The translations under genes were made by a program, and so were the position numbers. DNA of 10,180 nt from a virus (taxonomy: Duplodnaviria; Heunggongvirae; Uroviricota; Caudoviricetes), in IMG/VR virus record IMGVR_UViG_3300011952_000009; one strand, given 5' to 3'. Position 1 is the stretch's first letter. The number at the start of each line of letters is the position of its first letter. The notes below the pieces were generated by a model. The model did no database searches. It was not told where the DNA came from and was given only the letters and a program-made list of their open reading frames with translations. This document shows, one piece after another, positions 1-9,718 of this stretch.

Positions 1-1806
1 ATCCATATAAACATCTGCCGCAAATCCCAGATGAGATAGTGCTTTGACGGTGGCATCAGTAAGAGACTTTTTGGAGGCCTCTTTTTCCATTACCAGTGCC
101 CCTTTGTTATTTTTTGATATGTAATCCGTGTGGCCATATGACGGAATAAATCCTTTCACTCCGTTCCAGATGTACCAGAGATCTATCCGGATGGTGTGTA
201 CTGACAGGCAGAACAGGGAACCGTCAGCATCCCTGACAGGTTTTTGTCCAATAATTTTCCCTGTCTGATCCTGTATAGGTTCAAGTAATGGCACACCGCG
301 ATCCACTCGCTCCTCCTTGATNNNNNNNNNNGCACCGTAATCACTATGTGTGACATACGCAGGATCGGTCCGCTGAACGCGATTCCAGATAGCCAAATTT
401 GCTTTTCTCTGGTCATCATTCATTGCTGACAGATAATGCTCCATGCGAATTGATGCAGTTTTTTCCTCGGCATGGGGCGGCTCAACCAGCGCGTCAACGT
501 TCTGCACCAGATCCTTTACCTGCTCGCTAAGTTTTTCTTGTGGAGGAGTCTCTTCTGCCGGGGTAATAGCTGCAGGTTCCCTCTGTGAGACGGCGTTATT
601 TTCAGGTACGTCATACACATGGCGAGGCGTGATAAACTGCTCACGCAACTGCTGCAAACTACGTTCTCCAGCATTTGCAGCTTCGCTTTTTTCACCCTGA
701 TTTGAGGGTGTTTCTGACATCATCCCATCAATTGAGAATCGCCCGCCGCCGTGGTTGGTGACTTTTACATCATCCTTTGGTGCTGCTTCCTTTGACTTCT
801 CTTCAACAGCATTTGCATCACGCTGCCCGTTAGCTTGCAGCCAGTTGTCGATGTGACTGCGCAGGGATTGCGGGAAGTGGTACGTGTCTTTTGCGGGGGC
901 GCTCTGAATAACACCGAATACTGATGCGCGGTCATAGGCAAGGATCTGATCCGTTGTGCGCAAGGCCATTGACCAGCGTTTAAAATCCTCCCGATCCTGG
1001 CTGATTATTTCGTCTGCCGCTTTCAGGGCGCTGGGGGAGATTTTTTCCGGGCCAACGGGTAACAGAGCGCAGGCAATTTCACGATCCAGTGTAGCGTGAG
1101 TCTGTTTGTAAGGACGTGCGGACGGTTTTACCTCCGGCAGCATTTCATCGCGTTTACCGGGATTCTCTACCCATTTTTTTATAAATTTGGAGATAGTCCA
1201 ACTGGTCGGGTTTTGTTCCTGGGTATCGCAACTTGCCAAAATTGCATGTACCAGATTATTCAATCCAGCAATATGCATGTACTCGATGGGCTTACACGCC
1301 ACCATGGCATCAAGAACGATGCGGTTAAACGCGTCAACCTCATCCTCACTGTCAGTATCACTGTTGTCGAGCATCTCCAGGTATTCACGCGTCTGCGCAA
1401 GCAATTCACTGTCGACTTCGTTGGCGTCGTGGCTGAACAGCAGAACGGCGGCGAATCGTTCACGAGCCGGCAGTTTCATCAGGTCGTTAACCTGTGCGAT
1501 ATCTGCTGAACCGCTATCTACAACGGGGGTGTTAACTACCCATTTTTCGCCATCAAAACTGTGTTCTGTGGCGAACGTCTCATCAAACTCACCAACGCCT
1601 GGGCGCGGTTGGCCCAGGGCATCTTCCCAGATTTTAGGTTTGAAATAGTTGTCGCCGTGGTCAGGGTAGGCTTCCCACAATTTGCCGATGATGATGTTCT
1701 CGGCAACTTTTTTGTTAGGGGCGTCGATGGCGATGGCCAGCGCCGGGATCGCGCCGTTTTTGAGCGCGCCTTTTTTCGCTTCTAACAAGCCGTTAAAAAT
1801 GGTCAT
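1..1806 (-). CDS. Large multi-domain early protein, partial (continues beyond window start). N-terminal ~330 aa unrecognised, then an acidic Pro/Glu/Ala-rich linker, then a C-terminal segment (window positions ~1-440) resembling ERF-family ssDNA-annealing proteins
   Basis: ATG at 1806-1804 preceded by GAGGAAAGACC. Minus frame checked triplet by triplet: no stop from 1806 to position 1, crossing the N-run 322-331. Absent from the ORF track, presumably because it has no stop in the window. Track ORFs 183..419, 443..700, 1096..1509, 1187..1648, 1260..1463 and 1561..1785 are other frames or antisense of this ORF. ERF resemblance is to P22 Erf recalled from memory (GVPLL and K-A-L-x-x-L-G-F motifs with ERF-like spacing). 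Confidence 0.6.
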   Translation of the reverse strand, partial: MTIFNGLLEAKKGALKNGAIPALAIAIDAPNKKVAENIIIGKLWEAYPDHGDNYFKPKIWEDALGQPRPGVGEFDETFATEHSFDGEKWVVNTPVVDSGSADIAQVNDLMKLPARERFAAVLLFSHDANEVDSELLAQTREYLEMLDNSDTDSEDEVDAFNRIVLDAMVACKPIEYMHIAGLNNLVHAILASCDTQEQNPTSWTISKFIKKWVENPGKRDEMLPEVKPSARPYKQTHATLDREIACALLPVGPEKISPSALKAADEIISQDREDFKRWSMALRTTDQILAYDRASVFGVIQSAPAKDTYHFPQSLRSHIDNWLQANGQRDANAVEEKSKEAAPKDDVKVTNHGGGRFSIDGMMSETPSNQGEKSEAANAGERSLQQLREQFITPRHVYDVPENNAVSQREPAAITPAEETPPQEKLSEQVKDLVQNVDALVEPPHAEEKTASIRMEHYLSAMNDDQRKANLAIWNRVQRTDPAYVTHSDYGXXXXIKEERVDRGVPLLEPIQDQTGKIIGQKPVRDADGSLFCLSVHTIRIDLWYIWNGVKGFIPSYGHTDYISKNNKGALVMEKEASKKSLTDATVKALSHLGFAADVYMD

Positions 1807-1836
1807 TGGTCTTTCCTCATTACAGGTCAGTGGTCT

Positions 1837-2157
1837 TTAGTAGGGGATTTCATCAGTATCTGGCGTGTATTCGATGCAAAGTAACTGCTGGATTTTGTCA
1901 TCGATAGCAGCAATACGCTGTTGGGCGTCGGCGGCTGTATTCTGTTTTTGCTCACGCAGCTGCTCAACCTGTAAACCGATGATGTCGATTGGCTGGGGCT
2001 GGTTGACGGTAATTTCAATTTCGCGGCTTTCCAGAAGGATGTACCTGTCTGGAAAATTTTTTGACATATCAACTGTCGCAATAAACAGCTTTTCATGGCT
2101 GAAAGTTGAAGTTGCATAATGAATAAAGAGTGTTACTGGGATGGTGCGCGCTTCCAT
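1837..2157 (-). CDS. Hypothetical 106-aa early protein with an acidic, coiled-coil-like C-terminus
   Basis: ATG at 2157 with AAGGAG about 6 nt upstream; stop 30 nt before the next gene's start in the same operon; protein-like composition. Function not recognised. Confidence 0.6.
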   Translation of the reverse strand: MEARTIPVTLFIHYATSTFSHEKLFIATVDMSKNFPDRYILLESREIEITVNQPQPIDIIGLQVEQLREQKQNTAADAQQRIAAIDDKIQQLLCIEYTPDTDEIPY

Positions 2158-2241
2158 AGCGACTCCTTGGTGATGTATACTCAGAACCGATCAGCGAATA
2201 TTGATCAGCTTCCATAGCGTCAGTGTCGTTGGTCTTTCCTC

Positions 2242-2265
2242 ATCACAAGTTTGGTCACTTGTGAT
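2242..2265. other. Perfect 9-bp inverted repeat ATCACAAGT / ACTTGTGAT with 6-nt spacer TTGGTC (RNA hairpin or protein-binding palindrome)
   Basis: Read directly from sequence; lies in the leader about 85 nt upstream of the 106-aa gene start on the minus strand; no U-tract follows on either strand. Confidence 0.45.
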
Positions 2266-2386
2266 AAATCCGAATGGTTTGGTCGCCGTTCGGGGTAACT
2301 GGCCCGCCTTGTGCGGGTCTTTTGCTATCTAAAGGGTGCCGGTTACGTTTCCGGCGTCGTCATGTTTCCATCACGACCGTACAGGG

Positions 2387-2461
2387 CTGGTCTTTCCTGT
2401 TTTGAGCTGGTCAGGCTCATGGTCAACGCTGGTCAGGCGTGGTACTTCCTCCGGTCTTTCC
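2387..2461. repeat. Periodic array of four GACC-core repeats at ~20-22 bp spacing (plus strand GGTCTTTCC, GGTCAGGC, GGTCAGGC, GGTCTTTCC)
   Basis: Repeat starts at 2389, 2409, 2431 and 2453. Minus-strand readings (GGAAAGACC, GCCTGACCAGC) match the motifs found at three gene starts elsewhere in the window. Confidence 0.5.
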
Positions 2462-2531
2462 CTGGTTTCACGCTGCGGGTTTGGCCTCTCCTGTTGGGGA
2501 CTCAGGCACAGCGATAAAACCTGGCTGTGTG

Positions 2532-2559
2532 AAAAAATGGCCCATCGTGCGGACTGGGC
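2532..2559 (-). terminator. Weak terminator-like hairpin (GCCCA, 10-nt loop, TGGGC) followed by a U6 tract on the minus strand
   Basis: Stem at 2540-2559 and T-run at 2532-2537 read on the minus strand. The large loop and an enclosing 7-bp stem (GCTGTGT/ACACAGC) make this uncertain. Confidence 0.25.
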
Positions 2560-2583
2560 AAAGACTAAACACAGCAAATTGAT

Positions 2584-2608
2584 GATGGGCGCCCGGAATC
2601 GAACCGGG
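2584..2608 (-). ncRNA. tRNA-like 3' half: T-arm CCCGG-TTCGATT-CCGGG plus a 7-nt acceptor-like strand; not a canonical tRNA
   Basis: Minus strand reads ACCCGGTTCGATTCCGGGCGCCCATCATC. A perfect 5-bp stem with 7-nt T-loop consensus is present, but no CCA in register and no D-arm, anticodon arm or clean 7-bp acceptor partner was found upstream. Confidence 0.3.
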
Positions 2609-3005
2609 TAACGGGCAGGGAGTTCCCGTTAAACACCTGTTCACCACAACCGGGAGCGCACTCCGCCATTTCAAAATTTAACGACAAAGCTCAAAGTTGA
2701 GTCGATGAAGTGCGCTCTCGTGTTGTAGCCAGGACTCTTCCCTGGTGGTCACACCGTATCGCCTTGATGGTGAATCAATCGCTCATACCTGGCTGTGGCT
2801 TGCACATTCCGGCTACCTGCTATGGAGACAACGCGTTAAGGCTCCGCTTCCATCCAGACCGCTTCGACACATGTGCCATATGCCGGTGAAGTCTTTCCCT
2901 CTGTCACCGTGTTGGCGCCGACGCGCAAAATTTGGTGCCGTCTTTCCGGCTGTCAGAACTTGTTTCTGAACAACTGCCGCTGGGTAAGCGTTGTTGATGA
3001 AAGTG

Positions 3006-3034
3006 ACTTTACAATTTGTATTTGTAATGGTCAA
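3006..3034 (-). promoter_or_regulatory. pL-like leftward promoter (-35 TTGACC, 17-bp spacer, -10 TAAAGT on minus strand) overlapping 19-bp palindromic operator TTACAATTTGTATTTGTAA (3009-3027)
   Basis: Hexamers read on the minus strand at plus 3029-3034 and 3006-3011. Operator half-sites TTACAA and TTGTAA are exact reverse complements with a 7-bp spacer. Confidence 0.5.
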
Positions 3035-3118
3035 TGTGTTTTTAAAAAATAATTTGTAGTGAGGGACAAAAAAATATTCACTGTGTAAAGGTGTTTTTGT
3101 GTTAGGGGAAAGTTGCAT

Positions 3119-3134
3119 GCCAGCAGCGGCTGGC
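3119..3134. other. GC-rich hairpin GCCAGC-AGCG-GCTGGC, 19 nt downstream of the repressor stop
   Basis: Perfect 6-bp stem with tetraloop; no adjacent U-tract, so a terminator role is uncertain. Confidence 0.35.
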
Positions 3135-3152
3135 CTGGAAATTTGAACTGAA

Positions 3153-3566
3153 CTATTTTGTCTGGTTTTTGGCTTCAAGTAGTTCTTTTAGCAGTAGATC
3201 GAAGTGCTCTCTTTTTTCTTTTAGCTCATTGATTAGTTTGTTTTTTTCGCTCTCAGGCAGTCCTCTGAATAGTTGCAGTAGAGCCTGTTCTTGCGGGGTT
3301 AGTTCTTGATTGTAATTACCGGGGTGTAGCGTGGATTCATCCAAATATTCTCCTTCATTCATGAAGAAAAAATGAACAGGGTATCCGGTCACTTTTGCTA
3401 GCTTGTCTAATTTATCTTTTCTTGGAGTTACCCCATTACACCATGCCTGAACTGATTGAGCTGTAACCCCAATATGGCGAGCTAACTCAGATTGAGACCA
3501 GCCTAAGTCTTTTAGAATCCGTTGTAGTCGGCTAGCAAAAGCCATGTTTTTCGTTTTTGTGTTCAT
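3153..3566 (-). CDS. Prophage repressor, DicA-like (N-terminal HTH, C-terminal dimerisation region, no S24 peptidase domain)
   Basis: HTH segment LGWSQSELARHIGVTAQSVQAWCNG. C-terminal LTPQEQALLQLFRGLPESEKNKLINELKEKREHFDLLLKELLEAK resembles the DicA C-terminus as recalled. Divergent from a Cro-like gene and flanked by palindromic operators. Track start 3581 is a TTG; ATG at 3566 (or 3545) is more likely. Confidence 0.85.
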   Translation of the reverse strand: MNTKTKNMAFASRLQRILKDLGWSQSELARHIGVTAQSVQAWCNGVTPRKDKLDKLAKVTGYPVHFFFMNEGEYLDESTLHPGNYNQELTPQEQALLQLFRGLPESEKNKLINELKEKREHFDLLLKELLEAKNQTK

Positions 3567-3585
3567 ACCGTAAGGATACAAGGTT

Positions 3586-3619
3586 TAATTGTAGGGAGCA
3601 TTGCAAATATAATTTGTAA
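3586..3619. promoter_or_regulatory. OR-like operator/promoter region: TTGTAG(3589-3594), TTGCAA(3601-3606), TTGTAA(3614-3619); perfect TATAAT at 3607-3612 on plus strand
   Basis: Palindrome TTGCAAATATAATTTGTAA at 3601-3619 has the same TTRCAA-N7-TTGTAA architecture as the left operator. Sits between the divergent repressor and cro-like genes and is truncated by the N-run 3629-3638. Confidence 0.5.
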
Positions 3620-3659
3620 TTACAGTTANNNNNNNNNNCAAGACAAACTTCTTTCAGTA

Positions 3660-3854
3660 ATGAGACAATCCGAGTTAGGTCGGCGATTAGGGAAAAAACC
3701 ACAAACTGTGAGCCTCTGGTTCAAAGGACGGGTTCCCGGTGAAGAGGTTTTGCGCACATCTGAAGCTCTTGAATGGCGCGTGACCCCTCATGATCTTAGA
3801 CCGGATCTTTACCCAAACCCAGATGACAGCTTGCCTAAAACGGAAGCAGCTTAA
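3660..3854 (+). CDS. Cro/YdaS-like small HTH regulator; true 5' end probably lies in or before the N-gap 3629-3638
   Basis: Track ORF; HTH-like GRRLGKKPQTVSLWFKGRVP. Frame is open back to the gap edge at 3639 and there is no SD before ATG 3660, so the N-terminus is probably missing. Confidence 0.65.
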   Translation: MRQSELGRRLGKKPQTVSLWFKGRVPGEEVLRTSEALEWRVTPHDLRPDLYPNPDDSLPKTEAA

Positions 3855-3912: not shown

Positions 3913-4389
3913 ATGGAAAACCCAGAGGAATTACAAAAAGAGATTTTGACCTGGGCGGCAAGGGCAGGGCAGGAACTCGTCACGATTGAAATCTGCCGGG
4001 CCTGGTTCAGTCAGGGACGCAATGATGAGTTGAGACTACATGAATTTGAGGACGCGGACGGCAATGTGGACTGGAGAGCCATCAACAACAATCGGCAGAA
4101 AATCTTTCGCTGGTTACGTGGCGAGACAACGGCGGCGCGCCGAAAAACTCAGGTGCTGGCCAGTGTGATGAAAGCCGTGCTACCCGCAGAACGGCGGGCG
4201 CGTCTGGAGTCGCCGGGCGATCCCGTTTTGCTGGCAACGCTGGCGGCAAAAGAAGGGGTGGAAGCGATTAACGCTGTACATCTCCACTTCGCGCCAGAGA
4301 TAACTATTCAGGAAATTGACGAAGCAATAGCGGCGCTGGTAGCGACGCGAGGGGCAGTGATAAGCACTGCGCAAGGCCACCATGCATGA
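3913..4389 (+). CDS. YdaT-like protein (functional CII analogue in CP-933P-type prophages)
   Basis: AGGAG 5 nt before ATG 3913; positioned directly after cro as in repressor-cro-ydaT modules; motif NRQKIFRWLRGET resembles the YdaT family as recalled. Confidence 0.6.
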   Translation: MENPEELQKEILTWAARAGQELVTIEICRAWFSQGRNDELRLHEFEDADGNVDWRAINNNRQKIFRWLRGETTAARRKTQVLASVMKAVLPAERRARLESPGDPVLLATLAAKEGVEAINAVHLHFAPEITIQEIDEAIAALVATRGAVISTAQGHHA

Positions 4390-4428
4390 GCGCCTGACCA
4401 GCGTTTAACTTATACCGAGGAAAGACCG

Positions 4429-4653
4429 ATGTTAAGACATATTGACCGCATTACCTGGCGTAACGGCTGGCACCTGAATGGGCGCCCGGCACATGTTGCA
4501 GAGATCCAACCTATTTTTGATGGGCGTATGGCTGCCGCGCTTTCGGTGTGGGAGCAGTATGAATCCAGGAAGGTCGAGTTGCGCGACAAAGGGCTGAGCA
4601 ATGCGGACTATGAAGCCGGTTGTCGTCAGATAGCCGAAGCTCTGGAGATCTGA
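4429..4653 (+). CDS. Hypothetical 74-aa protein
   Basis: ATG 4429 preceded by ACCGAGGAAAGACC; its stop TGA 4651-4653 sits 2 nt before the next gene's ATG. Confidence 0.6.
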   Translation: MLRHIDRITWRNGWHLNGRPAHVAEIQPIFDGRMAAALSVWEQYESRKVELRDKGLSNADYEAGCRQIAEALEI

Positions 4654-4655
4654 GT

Positions 4656-5690
4656 ATGAGTCGTTTGCTGATTAACGAAAACCCCCTTCAGGTCCTGCCC
4701 ACGTTGGCATGCACTATAGGGTTGAATGAAGCCATCGTTCTACAGCAAATCCACTACTGGCTGAATTCATCTCAAAATTTCTTCGAAAATCGCCACTGGG
4801 TGTACAACAGTGTGACCGATTGGCAAGAACAATTCCCGTTCTGGAGCGAGTCGACAATAAAACGCGTGCTGGCCAATCTGGAAAAATTGAATGTGGTATT
4901 TACTGGGAACTTTAACAGTGATGCCTGGGATAAAACCAAGTGGTNNNNNNNNNNCCCAGTTATGTAAGATTGAAGAGACAACATTCCCTGTGGCCAATCG
5001 ATTAGGTCAAGTTGACCCAATCGAAGAGGTCAATGTGACCCAAGCATCAGGTCAAGTTGACCCATGCGCTAAGGTCAAAATGACCCAATCTCTTACAGAG
5101 AATACAACAGAGAGTACTACAGAGATAAAAGATCCCCCTTACCCCCAAAAGGGGGAGGGCGAGGAAATCATTCTCGCTGACGCTCAAAAAGCTCTGAACT
5201 ACTACAACGAGAAAGTCGGTACACGCTGCCGCGACGTTAAACCGTTTGTCATGCTGCTGACTGCCACCACCACCCGCGCTGGTTACAGCGTGGCTGAGAT
5301 TCAGTTAGTAATTCGTTGGGTTATTGCGACATGGCGCCGTCGTAGCGGAAGCGTGCCGAAACCTGCGAACATTTGCCGCGTAAACCGGTTTGACGGATAT
5401 CTGGCTGACGCTGAGGCGTGGGCCACTGCTGAGGCTGCCGTTGACCCTGCTGAAGTTGTGAAGGGCTACAACGAGATTCTGGGCGACCTGACCGCCGTCG
5501 GGCAATCCTGCGCCTGCTGGCACATATGCGCACGCAAACTCTTGGCGCATTTATCGGCTACTTCGAAAAATTCCGCGATAACGCCCCAGACTTCTATTTC
5601 GGCGGCGAATATCGCACCGGCTGGCGGGCAGGGTTTGATTACCTGATGAAGCCAGAAACACTGCGTAAAACCAGGGAAGGGGCATTATGA
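4656..5690 (+). CDS. Replication initiation protein, lambda O-like / replisome organiser, with the origin inside the gene; reading frame changes at the N-gap 4945-4954 and again near 5455-5505
   Basis: ATG 4656 with GGAG 8 nt upstream. N-terminal HTH-like segment (track 4620..4967), middle part in track ORF 4891..5646. The last ~60 codons are more protein-like in another frame (AILRLLAHMRTQTLGAFIGYFEKFRDNAPDFYFGGEYRTGWRAGFDYLMKPETLRKTREGAL) ending TGA 5688-5690, which overlaps the helicase ATG 5687 (ATGA). Confidence 0.7.
5004..5087. repeat. Replication origin iterons: four copies of AGGTCAANNTGACCCA at 22-23 bp spacing, followed by an A-rich tract (5088-5140)
   Basis: Copies at 5004-5019, 5027-5042, 5049-5064 and 5072-5087; each has internal dyad symmetry (GGTCA/TGACC); located inside the O-like gene as in ori-lambda. 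Confidence 0.75.
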
Positions 5691-7035: not shown

Positions 7036-7073
7036 CCACGCATGACCAGCGTGAAATAACCGAGGAAAGACCA

Positions 7074-7484
7074 ATGACCACCATTTCAGGCAAATTAGAG
7101 TACCCGTCGGACAAAGGACACATAGACGACGGTAAAAACTATCTCGACGTCATTTTGTGGAATATGAACGCCGGGCCACGTGCGCGCACTCGTGCGGTTT
7201 TTGTACCAAGACCCAAAGCAGGCAATTTTTCAACACCAGCTCAGCCTGCCCGTCAGGCATCCGTAGCCGCAGCGCCAGCAGTGAAATGTAAGGGTAAAAC
7301 GCACATCGGGATCGCGATTCGCAGAAATGGTGAGCGGCAAGTGAAACTCCACGAAACAGCGACAACCTGGTGTGCTTCACCGCATGAAACTTACGACAAG
7401 ATAACCGGGCAGCGCATTGGTGCGCCTGGTCGCTGTCGCCTGCTGTTGAGCTCCATCACTCCGATAGAAAAGAAAGGGGCGTGA
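7074..7484 (+). CDS. Hypothetical 136-aa basic protein
   Basis: ATG 7074 preceded by ACCGAGGAAAGACC; track ORF; function not recognised. Confidence 0.65.
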   Translation: MTTISGKLEYPSDKGHIDDGKNYLDVILWNMNAGPRARTRAVFVPRPKAGNFSTPAQPARQASVAAAPAVKCKGKTHIGIAIRRNGERQVKLHETATTWCASPHETYDKITGQRIGAPGRCRLLLSSITPIEKKGA

Positions 7485-8658: not shown

Positions 8659-8687
8659 TTGACTTAGAAAAAGCCCGGGGCTATAGT
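8659..8687 (+). promoter_or_regulatory. Strong sigma70 promoter: -35 TTGACT (8659-8664), 17-bp spacer, -10 TATAGT (8682-8687)
   Basis: Read directly; both hexamers 5/6 to consensus with optimal spacing; predicted start site about 8694-8696. Confidence 0.55.
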
Positions 8688-8747
8688 TTCCGCGCAGCCG
8701 CAAAATCGGTTGCCGGGATTGGCGTCCCGGATATCTAAGTGACGCAT

Positions 8748-8768
8748 AGCCGCGTTAGCGGTTTTTTT
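8748..8768 (+). terminator. Rho-independent terminator: stem CCGC/GCGG (extendable to 6 bp), loop GTTA, then T7
   Basis: Stem 8750-8753 / 8758-8761, T-run 8762-8768; about 60-75 nt downstream of the predicted start site. A second hairpin CCGGGA-TTGGCG-TCCCGG lies at 8713-8730. Confidence 0.55.
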
Positions 8769-8929
8769 ATGTGTTAGGCACGGCCACATTCGCATTATGG
8801 TGGGCTGTGTGGGGGCTTCTGCGGAAGCGCCGGGTTCACTTAGCCGGTTACGCCAACCCTGCACAGTTCACCACCAGATGATTGGCGTCGCTGGTGGTGA
8901 TGAAAAAAACACTAAGTGAGGCCACTGCG

Positions 8930-9718
8930 ATGACAATCCAAATATCTGCGGAATCCCTTTCTCCGCTACATCATAACCAACTTCCCGTCATCACTACTGA
9001 ATTGCTTGCCAGTTTGTATGGCACGGAAGTAAATGGTATCCAGCAAAACTTCAAGCGCAACATCGCCAGATTTGTCGTAGGAAAGCATTTTTTTAAGCTG
9101 GAAGGTAATGAATTACGCGACTTCAAAAACAGACTGACAGATAGTCAGTCAGTTGCTAAACATACCCGATCCCTCATTCTCTGGACAGAACGCGGCGCAG
9201 CTCGCCATGCCAAAATGCTGGAAACAGAACAGGCCTGGGAAGTTTTCGAAAAGCTGGAAGATTGTTATTTTAGCCAGCGTCCAGAGAGGCGGAGTACAAC
9301 TACCGATGACCGTACTCCCTTACGTGATGCCGTTAATATGCTGGTCGGTAAGAAAGGCATGATGTATCCCGATGCCTACACCATGATTCATCAACGCTTC
9401 GCCGTCTCTCACATAGAACAACTGTCACAGACGCAAATGTTAGAGGCGATTGAATACATCCACTGCCTGCTACTCGATGAAAATCAGCCAACCATTCCAG
9501 ATTTTTCTTTTATCACCACTATCAAAAATGGAAAAGTGACCAGGATGCGCCATGTTGCCAAAGGCGAACATCTGATGACGTTTGACGCTTTCAAAGAGAT
9601 CGCTGAGCGGGCAGGGTATCTGGTGATCCACAGCGACAACCTGCGAAGTATGACACTGGATAAATTGATGGTAATGGGGAAAAAGTCTGCTGTATCTGTT
9701 GCTGATTCAGCATTTTGA
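8930..9718 (+). CDS. ORF6N-domain protein (phage antirepressor-like) with an unrecognised C-terminal domain
   Basis: N-terminal LASLYGTEVNGIQQNFKRNIARFVVGKHFFKLEGNELRDF...LILWTERGAARHAKMLETEQAWEVFEKLEDCYF fits the ORF6N pattern as recalled. GAGG 8 nt before ATG 8930; track start 8882 is a TTG and ATG 8900 is an alternative. Confidence 0.75.
   Translation: MTIQISAESLSPLHHNQLPVITTELLASLYGTEVNGIQQNFKRNIARFVVGKHFFKLEGNELRDFKNRLTDSQSVAKHTRSLILWTERGAARHAKMLETEQAWEVFEKLEDCYFSQRPERRSTTTDDRTPLRDAVNMLVGKKGMMYPDAYTMIHQRFAVSHIEQLSQTQMLEAIEYIHCLLLDENQPTIPDFSFITTIKNGKVTRMRHVAKGEHLMTFDAFKEIAERAGYLVIHSDNLRSMTLDKLMVMGKKSAVSVADSAF

Follow-up and report, generated by a model that had tools for sequence, protein, structure and literature searches.

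The window analysed here, a stretch of 10,180 nucleotides of viral DNA, corresponds to the early/immunity region of a lambdoid prophage of the Gifsy/Rac-like kind. E. coli YZMc3-1 carries a close relative at tRNA-Ser, beside mtfA, that is 98.6% identical to the window over 1800-3200. From the repressor gene rightward, the genes and RNAs are, in order:

3153-3581, minus strand: HTH-only repressor gene
3660-3854, plus strand: Cro-like gene
3913-4389: YdaT gene, to the right of the Cro-like gene
downstream of YdaT: 74-aa ORF
downstream of the 74-aa ORF: RepO gene, with four internal iterons
downstream of RepO: DnaB-like helicase gene, followed by several small genes
8681-8878: isrK/C4 RNA set, identified with Rfam
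last in the gene order: ORF6N antirepressor gene

On the other side of the repressor gene, the first annotated leftward gene has its ATG at 2157, and the proteins encoded on this side are one of unknown function (phrog_2479) and a RecE-like exonuclease (phrog_2489, exonuclease). An unannotated leader of ~840 nt separates this first gene from a pL-like promoter (3034-3006), and the repeat array that is the subject of this analysis lies within it. RefSeq does not annotate the region, which contains, apart from the array and a predicted small RNA (sRNA), an RprA look-alike, an element resembling a tRNA and a structured element of 170 nt that is widespread. The features upstream of the array are:

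3006-3034, minus strand: pL-like promoter (TTGACC, 17 nt, TAAAGT), the only sigma-70-like match in 1700-3700, just left of the repressor gene
2950-2937, minus strand: GAAAGA-loop hairpin GCCG-GAAAGA-CGGC, near the 5' end of the leader
2901-2888, minus strand: GAAAGA-loop hairpin GAGG-GAAAGA-CUUC, near the 5' end of the leader
2531-2580, minus strand: look-alike of the 3' half of RprA, directly preceding the array and including an intrinsic terminator; its Rfam RprA match, at 37.4 bits and E=0.011, falls short of the gathering score

The counterparts of the two 5' hairpins in phage BUCT708 have compensatory stems (CCCG/CGGG and GCGG/CUGC), and the first of them (2950-2937) is kept even in the shortest leaders among the relatives. 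The tRNA-like element, at 2584-2664 and outside the array, is a tRNA-Sec-like Rfam match of only 19 bits, and ARAGORN found 0 tRNA/tmRNA genes in the window. A literature search on RprA-like prophage RNAs returned nothing relevant. The intrinsic terminator of the RprA look-alike (2554-2532) directly precedes the array, and its stem covaries in relatives. Since the array lies just past this good terminator, transcripts from pL would reach it only after read-through. Many relatives have a second, bidirectional terminator before the first gene, and some have CCCUC-GAAAA/GAAGA-GAGGG hairpins.

Read on the plus strand, the array consists of GGTCTTTCC at 2389-2397 and 2453-2461 and GCTGGTCAGGC at 2406-2416 and 2428-2438, such that GGTC cores occur at 2389, 2409, 2431 and 2453, with spacings of 20, 22 and 22 nt. 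The first-pass annotation had picked out these four repeats, together with three further TTGGTC copies between 2229 and 2284, and both observations hold: the TTGGTC copies are at 2229, 2251 and 2279, and the array motifs occur far above chance. There are 6 copies of GGAAAGACC in the window against 0.07 expected, and 4 copies of GCNTGACCAGC against 0.04, counts that 0 of 200 shuffles reached for either motif. All 6 copies of the former and all 4 of the latter are co-oriented with presumed transcription, being on the minus strand to the left of the repressor gene and on the plus strand to the right; those of GGAAAGACC are at 1808, 2231, 2389 and 2453 on the minus strand and at 4419 and 7064 on the plus strand. 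On the strand read from pL, the four units are:

2451-2465, minus strand: unit G1, putative hairpin CCAGG-GAAAGA-CCGG with one bulged A, which holds GGAAAGACC (2461-2453); based on sequence and on the GAAAGA hairpins of relatives
2426-2440, minus strand: unit A1, putative hairpin ACGC-CUGACCA-GCGU; based on sequence and stem covariation
2403-2419, minus strand: unit A2, putative hairpin UGAGC-CUGACCA-GCUCA; based on sequence and stem covariation
2381-2400, minus strand: unit G2, GGAAAGACC (2397-2389) within a possible ACAGG...CCUGU stem

Several familiar kinds of element do not describe the array. Only ORFs of 27-91 aa with TTG or GTG starts overlap it, and the 1- and 2-nt indels that it shows in the alignment with BUCT708 mean that it is not coding. 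Its GC skew is about 0 and its transcript is A-rich rather than C-rich, which argues against a Rho-loading (rut) site. A type III toxin-antitoxin locus (ToxI-like tandem repeats of ~34-36 nt with a ToxN-like gene) was rejected, as Tandem Repeats Finder reported nothing in 2150-3000 and the genes downstream encode the phrog_2479 protein and the RecE-like exonuclease. A CsrB/RsmZ-type sponge was rejected as well, the loops being CUGACCA and GAAAGA and not A(N)GGA, with GGA at most at a stem edge. Rfam gave no match at the array or at the predicted sRNA, either at the gathering score or at E values up to 5.

Repeats about two helical turns apart could also be sites in duplex DNA, lined up on one face of the helix and bound by the O-like initiator or another early regulator, as the first-pass annotation had proposed. 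Cores of the form TGGTC(A/T) lie 10-20 bp apart in the window (at 2388, 2408, 2420, 2430, (2440) and 2452), and TGACC, the half-site core of the ori iterons, recurs in the array. In sequence, the kinship with the iterons is limited to this shared 5-mer; a repeat at about 20-23 bp is also common to the array and to lambda-type ori iterons. The iterons of this phage, however, are 18-bp palindromes (AGGTCAA-N2-TTGACCCA, 4 copies at 5003-5090, inside the O gene), whereas the array units are asymmetric, oriented with transcription, variably spaced and paired as RNA stems. There is no 18-bp iteron palindrome in 2380-2470, and the half-site GTTGACCA (2427-2420) is not kept in relatives. The array block as such is conserved in relatives, but the spacing of ~20 nt, or two turns, is not: across 48 distinct leaders the units are 12-41 nt apart and fall into 11 arrangements, that of the window being G-A-A-G. 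Strict co-orientation of the copies with transcription in both divergent operons, and flanks that covary as base pairs, likewise argue against recognition as duplex DNA, and the repeats near pL and pR that look like operators, being AT-rich (ACAAAT-type), have no relation to those of the array. We therefore give almost no weight to the array as a set of DNA-binding sites.

On the pL-sense strand, the GCCTGACCAGC units look like RNA hairpins with stems of 4-5 bp that display a CUGACCA loop, and we take the GCCUGACCAGC units of the leader RNA to fold into such hairpins. The evidence for the array hairpins is comparative only; the folding energy of the array is unexceptional on either strand (z about 0). 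We collected 85 distinct instances of N3-GC-NTGACCN-GC-N3 from relatives as an unselected set and compared them with a control in which stem partners were shuffled. The third stem pair is Watson-Crick in 64 of the 85 (shuffle mean 27, maximum 41) and the fourth in 55 (shuffle mean 32, maximum 43), and the outer stems fall into four main types, GC/GC, GG/CC, GA/UC and AC/GU. In the leader arrays themselves, 19 of 20 UGACCA-hairpin instances pair, via 8 different stems, and across ~50 related leaders the 7-nt loop with UGACC is fixed while the stems show compensatory substitutions. Unit A1, for example, reads GGGC-AUGACCA-GCCC in one variant (L013-L015 and L132), a double compensatory change.

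The stems of the GAAAGA-loop hairpins covary in the same way (CCGG/CCGG, CCCG/CGGG, GCGG/CCGC and UCUG/CAGG; read with one more pair, GCCGG/CCGGC, GCCCG/CGGGC, UGCGG/CCGCA and GUCUG/CAGGC), and they include G.U pairs that are valid only on the sense strand. Copies of GGAAAGACC fall into two classes, GAAAGA-loop hairpins with covarying stems and an unpaired cassette, GAGGAAAGACCAAUG. For the array-type hairpins themselves the evidence of strand is modest, G.U pairs outnumbering A.C mismatches on the transcript strand by 13 to 8 and by 11 to 4. Together, the co-orientation of the units with transcription, the covariation of their flanks as base pairs around fixed GACCA cores and the excess of G.U over A.C suggest that the array has its role at the RNA level.

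The same motifs precede early genes elsewhere in the window. The first-pass annotation had noted that they are shared with cassettes before three start codons, and these correspond to modules A and B and cassette C below; cassette D is a further copy.

4389-4431, plus strand: module A, hairpin AGCGC-CUGACCA-GCGUU, 11 nt, then GAGGAAAGACCGAUG, at the 74-aa ORF (as DNA, AGCGC-CTGACCA-GCGTT ... GAGGAAAGACCGATG)
7037-7076, plus strand: module B, hairpin CACGC-AUGACCA-GCGUG, 8 nt, then GAGGAAAGACCAAUG, at a 136-aa ORF (as DNA, CACGC-ATGACCA-GCGTG ... GAGGAAAGACCAATG)
1803-1840, minus strand: cassette C, AAAGACCACUGACC...GAGGAAAGACCAAUG, before the RecE-like exonuclease gene (as DNA, 1840-1803, ending in GAGGAAAGACCAATG)
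2229-2241, minus strand: cassette D, GAGGAAAGACCAA, the cis target of the predicted sRNA seed, invariant in 18 of 18 aligned relatives

The hairpins of modules A and B directly follow the stop codons of ydaT and dnaB and stand 8-11 nt before GAGGAAAGACC(A/G)ATG, and the GAGGA within the cassette GAGGAAAGACCAAUG is a Shine-Dalgarno sequence. Cassette D stands a short way before the first leftward gene and its short, variable uORFs. Of the 341 copies of GGAAAGACC in 48 related loci, 151 have an ORF of 40 aa or more starting no further than 8 nt away. Relatives provide 124 distinct contexts in which GAGGAAAGACC is followed by a start codon and an ORF, about 70 of them with an xUGACCx-loop hairpin upstream, and the distance from the end of the hairpin to the cassette has a median of 11 nt over all contexts with an upstream hairpin. 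The two motifs thus combine, as a hairpin, ~10 nt and GAGGAAAGACC(A)AUG, into a two-part initiation module that characterises this phage family and precedes many of its early genes.

This placement bears on the possibility that the hairpins are cis-acting antitermination signals, either nut/boxB-like or put-like, that allow transcription to read through the leader terminators. The terminator before the array and the second, bidirectional one of many relatives would make read-through necessary, the GAAAGA hairpins follow pL at 45-100 nt, the place expected for nutL, and the CCCUC-GAAAA/GAAGA-GAGGG hairpins of some relatives resemble lambda boxB. Yet YGCTCTTTA, with at most 1 mismatch, has 4 matches against 3.7 expected, none of them in the leader; a nut boxA (CGCTCTTTA-like) 5' of the hairpins was not found in the leader; and the proteins of the window include no N-like family match, with ORF translations inspected only by eye. 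Moreover, a nut system would have one site per early operon and an N gene with an arginine-rich motif, whereas the window has four of these hairpins and relatives have them ahead of many genes. Their fixed distance of ~10 nt from Shine-Dalgarno cassettes points to translation rather than to modification of the polymerase. We regard antitermination as very unlikely to account for the array.

The three TTGGTC copies at 2229, 2251 and 2279 lie inside a predicted sRNA gene that is encoded on the plus strand, 60-270 nt downstream of the array, and is transcribed convergently with the leader:

2176-2323 with promoter, plus strand: predicted sRNA gene, ~135 nt, start about 2188 and end about 2323 (alignment A2)
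2176-2181, plus strand: -10 box TATACT
2229-2241, plus strand: seed UUGGUCUUUCCUC, 13 nt, invariant
2242-2265, plus strand: hairpin 1, loop UUGGUC
2269-2294, plus strand: hairpin 2, loop UUUGGUCG (UUUGGUC)
2301-2319, plus strand: terminator, with a U-run at 2320-2323

A 5' stem lies between the -10 box and the seed. In alignment A2, 99.1% of cells are paired and 10 of 19 pairs have changed on both sides, and the covariation score of 0.548 exceeds that of the shuffles (0.283) and those of the slid controls (0.13 or less). Hairpin 1 alone has about 20 different stems of 8-9 bp in relatives around a UUGGUC loop that is almost invariant. The strand is indicated by 58 G.U cells that are valid only on the plus strand and would be A.C mismatches on the opposite one, and the predicted folding has an MFE z-score of -7.4. 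The -10 box, for which we found no convincing -35 box, is TATAAT in some relatives and is retained even where the adjoining gene differs, and in some relatives the terminator has been swapped for a non-homologous one on the same strand. A previously unannotated antisense sRNA of ~135 nt on the plus strand is thus strongly supported by sequence comparison. Our literature search returned no description of this enterobacterial module, of its motif strings or of the sRNA, and a Salmonella prophage transcriptome paper lists other ncRNAs and not this one.

Cassette GAGGAAAGACCAA is matched exactly by the complementary seed of the sRNA, whose loops are complementary to GACCAA/GACCAG. The order of the elements suits antiparallel pairing, with the sRNA presenting its seed 5' of its loop and the mRNA its loop 5' of its cassette. 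When duplexes between the seed region and transcripts of the window were predicted, most of the strongest beyond the cis site involved cassette C, the array, cassette B and the region of the 5' GAAAGA hairpins, a ranking that the motif sharing itself partly predetermines. Of 58 loci covering the immunity region, 52 have both the sRNA and the modules, and at least two of the other six have sRNA loop variants; since all of these loci belong to one phage lineage, the co-occurrence does not discriminate between the hypotheses. Leaders collected via an independent anchor, GCGGCAGTTGTTCAGAA, all keep the same seed and cassette and hence have no power to reveal co-variation of seed and target, and where hairpin 1 of the sRNA has a variant loop, as in L032 and L235, the target loops show no matching change.

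The array varies among relatives. A scan of viral contigs for the motif pair gave about 50 true leader homologues, and genomes of Enterobacterales added more (Escherichia whittamii, Pseudescherichia, Citrobacter, Raoultella, Phytobacter, Serratia and Rosenbergiella). Both scans contained many chance matches, and we kept only those that showed the complete architecture. The segment 2188-2470 is present in 473 of 5426 complete E. coli genomes. In its minimal form the array is a cassette, then a UGACCA hairpin, then a GAAAGA hairpin, while ST131-type E. coli relatives have an extra 15-nt hairpin, GGGC-CUGACCA-GCCC, inserted at unit G2. In the minimal leaders of Pseudescherichia and Phytobacter the sRNA is present and the array absent, the first GAAAGA hairpin running straight to the sRNA region, which implies that the array is dispensable for the core circuit.

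The repeats might instead be footprints of modular recombination, that is, boundary or linker sequences, with the array a stack of leftovers of little function. Minimal leaders lack the inserted modules, and in longer leaders the repeats border the insertions, which are the RprA-like sRNA, the tRNA-like element, the 170-nt element and a small ORF, in agreement with a suggestion of the first-pass annotation that these are reiterated module-boundary sequences. The unit number and order also vary among the 11 arrangements, a 15-nt unit was gained in the ST131-type relatives, and the phage encodes a RecE-like exonuclease. Neutral relics, however, would not hold their loops invariant under compensatory change of the stems; the array block is among the best-conserved parts of the leader in comparison with BUCT708, which is 72% identical overall; and recombination should delete copies rather than stack them. 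Because inserted modules are flanked by the repeats, an origin as recombination linkers is partly true as a history of the leader; as the whole account of the array we consider it rather improbable.

The reading that we favour, at somewhat less than an even chance, is that the array provides extra or decoy target sites for the antisense sRNA. The leader array and the cassettes would then be RNA-level recognition elements for the sRNA, those of the array being placed in the untranslated pL leader. The sRNA would pair with the Shine-Dalgarno cassette through its seed and kiss the GACCA loop, and this pairing would block translation of the early genes that bear the cassette, in the first place the uORF and first gene of the left operon. 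Once pL fires, the array in the leader would dock or titrate the sRNA. What the comparisons show is the enrichment and orientation of the motifs, the covariation of the hairpins, the module before genes and the structure and strand of the sRNA; that the sRNA is expressed and pairs with these sites, and the direction of the regulatory effect, we infer. Weighing against this reading are the intrinsic terminator ahead of the array, the unexceptional folding energy of the array, the modest evidence of strand for its hairpins, the lack of a convincing -35 box for the sRNA, the hairpin 1 loop variants that the targets do not follow, and the minimal leaders that keep the sRNA and have no array.

Phage RNAs of this general kind are known from immunity systems. 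The C4 RNA of the P1/P7 immI region acts on a1/b1 and a2/b2 targets and the CI RNA of P4 on seqA/seqC, with a translational block and polarity on downstream early genes, and both RNAs are cut from the same sense transcript as their targets. The RNA predicted here is similar in being a structured phage RNA with exposed segments complementary to reiterated leader sites, one set at the ribosome-binding site of the first ORF and the other upstream. It differs in having its gene, with a -10 box and a terminator, on the strand opposite to that of the leader, and in that its presumed targets also precede several unrelated genes in both early operons; nor does 2188-2470 resemble C4 or CI in sequence. 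The window does contain a true C4/c4-a1b1/isrK set (Rfam clan CL00128), at 8681-8878, but the C4, c4-a1b1 and isrK models found nothing at 2100-3100 even at E values up to 5. Lambda OOP and P22 sar, which act on cII and ant, respectively, have a single cis target each. The predicted sRNA is like them a short, terminator-ended RNA that is convergent with an early/immunity operon and overlaps an initiation region, whereas its seed matches a cassette of which the window has six copies and relatives 124 distinct gene contexts, in addition to the loop motifs.

The closest described phenomenon is that of the start-associated sequences (SAS) and the associated ESAS of Cluster K mycobacteriophages, whose function is unknown and for which a protein or an RNA reader was proposed (Pope et al. 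2011, PMC3203893). In both cases a short, asymmetric sequence containing a Shine-Dalgarno motif stands, in one orientation, a few nucleotides before the starts of a subset of non-structural or early genes; a second, inverted-repeat element lies upstream in about half of the cases (here about 70 of 124); and occasional copies are not attached to genes, which in the phages studied here cluster in one leader. The sequences differ (GAGGAAAGACC here, GGGATAGGAGCCC in the mycobacteriophages), and the hosts are of another phylum and the phages of another lineage. Upstream, the phages studied here have a hairpin of 4-5 bp with covarying stems, whereas the ESAS repeats are, according to their authors, not supportive of RNA pairing (PMC3203893), and here the genome that holds the modules also encodes a complementary antisense sRNA. 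We therefore treat the relation as one of analogy and not of membership.

A protein reader is also the main alternative for the elements described here. The UGACCA and GAAAGA loops and the cassettes might be operators for a sequence-specific RNA-binding protein of the phage or host, with the array serving as a sponge or loading platform by the logic of CsrA and CsrB and the sRNA forming a separate layer. Fixed loops on covarying stems are what recognition of a loop sequence would produce, two GACCA motifs ~25 nt apart, one in the loop and one at the Shine-Dalgarno sequence and start, resemble the two-site binding of a dimer, and the authors of the SAS/ESAS study considered a protein as well as an RNA (PMC3203893). 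On the other hand, no candidate was found among the genes of the window, the loops are without the GGA motif that CsrA binds, and the neighbouring sRNA, which co-occurs with the modules, offers an RNA partner of perfect complementarity. We consider an RNA-binding protein unlikely as the reader of the array.

If the array and cassettes are instead sites for the sRNA, a broader scheme can be envisaged, which we hold to be possible but doubtful: a single sRNA, with an anti-Shine-Dalgarno seed and two GACCA-reading loops, would control a phage-wide early regulon that spans both operons and is defined by the shared two-part module, and the pL array would be a built-in sponge that lifts the block at induction. 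Should this be true, it would represent an RNA-based second immunity or timing circuit, and the sRNA would be the first identified reader for sequences of the SAS/ESAS type. Start-associated phage repeats have been without a known reader since their description in 2011, and a complementary antisense sRNA is a concrete candidate. The prophage family is a common one, occurring in many ST131 strains among E. coli and also in Citrobacter, Raoultella, Serratia and others, and if its early genes are under an RNA switch, this would matter for lysogeny and prophage induction in strains of clinical importance.

Exact matches to the noncoding leader segment of the pL-like transcript are present as spacers in two E. 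coli CRISPR arrays (L348 and L349). One of them, a 32-nt type I-E spacer of ECCNB12-2 that also occurs in GN03139, is identical to window positions 2422-2453 (plus strand), which lie within the four-repeat array, and its protospacer has ATG at 2419-2421 as the PAM. The other, a 33-nt spacer present in two copies in strain 2020CK-00188, matches positions 2226-2258 (plus strand) exactly, a protospacer that covers both the seed and hairpin 1 of the predicted antisense sRNA. The 2188-2470 segment was itself found in 473 E. coli genomes, in 419 of them at 90-95% identity. The genomes listed (H43-H76), many of which are O25b:H4-ST131, are 94% identical to this segment and exceed it in length by 15 nt, which fits the extra GGGC-CUGACCA-GCCC hairpin observed at 2381-2400 in viral contigs L007, L038, L059 and L128.

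Three further elements were identified within the leader, and one RNA module was identified elsewhere in the window.

Candidate and known RNA elements in the window
2531-2580, minus strand: segment resembling the RprA 3' half, comprising UUGCUGUGUUUAGUCUUUGCCC and a terminator (sub-threshold Rfam hit, 37 bits, E=0.011)
2584-2664, minus strand: tRNA-like element whose T-arm (CCCGGUUCGAUUCCGGG) is perfect, immediately 5' of the RprA-like segment
2714-2885, minus strand: structured element of ~170 nt with long invariant blocks
8681-8878, plus strand: complete c4-a1b1 / isrK / C4 antisense RNA set, 5' of the ORF6N antirepressor gene (8882-9718)

The ~170-nt element contains the invariant blocks GGCACATG, GGTAGCCGGAATGTGCAAGCC and TCACCATC..GGCG.T.CGGTGTG, and RNAalifold analysis indicated compensatory changes at seven of its pairs. 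It recurs, without annotation, in unrelated phages 5' of small minus-strand genes; in Uetakevirus SPN1S/PAT1/Tyrion it lies between terminase and portal, and further carriers are the Klebsiella phages SopranoGao and ST512 phi13.3 and the P1-like D6/SJ46. A search of Rfam returned no match for this element, which is a candidate for a new phage ncRNA or leader motif.

RprA is a host sRNA, and in the relative L021 the agreement with the RprA consensus is even better. The segment could represent a phage mimic of RprA that is freed at the leader's terminator. The neighboring tRNA-like element scored only 19 bits with the tRNA-Sec model, was not called as a tRNA by ARAGORN, and is missing from the related phage BUCT708. 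A possible role for it is to guide processing of the RNase P/Z type.

The leader also varies among relatives. In some, including L115 and L021, two GAAAGA hairpins are separated by an inserted small ORF (MTKKDMTDMLIR...) that has a GAGGAAAGACCAATATG cassette of its own, and the leader evidently tolerates moron-like insertions at these elements. In many relatives (e.g., L022, L026 and L043), the sRNA terminator, AACCCAC-UUCG-GUGGGUU followed by a U-run, has a short U-run on the opposite strand as well, such that the sense transcript would face two terminators 5' of the first gene. The start region of that gene, CGCTTCCATAGCG (minus-strand reading ..GCUAUGGAAGC..), occurs twice, at 2149-2168 and 2207-2226, with the copies 58 nt apart. 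This duplication gives rise to an out-of-frame uORF of 40 aa (2215-2093), which relatives lack or have in a different form.

Runs of N at 3629-3638, and short ones near 4945, 6630 and 8160, are a masking artefact rather than biology; they break the pR/operator region and several ORFs, and appear as XXXX in translations. With the C4 set at 8681-8878, the prophage is already equipped with a known immunity module based on RNA, besides the one proposed at the leader.
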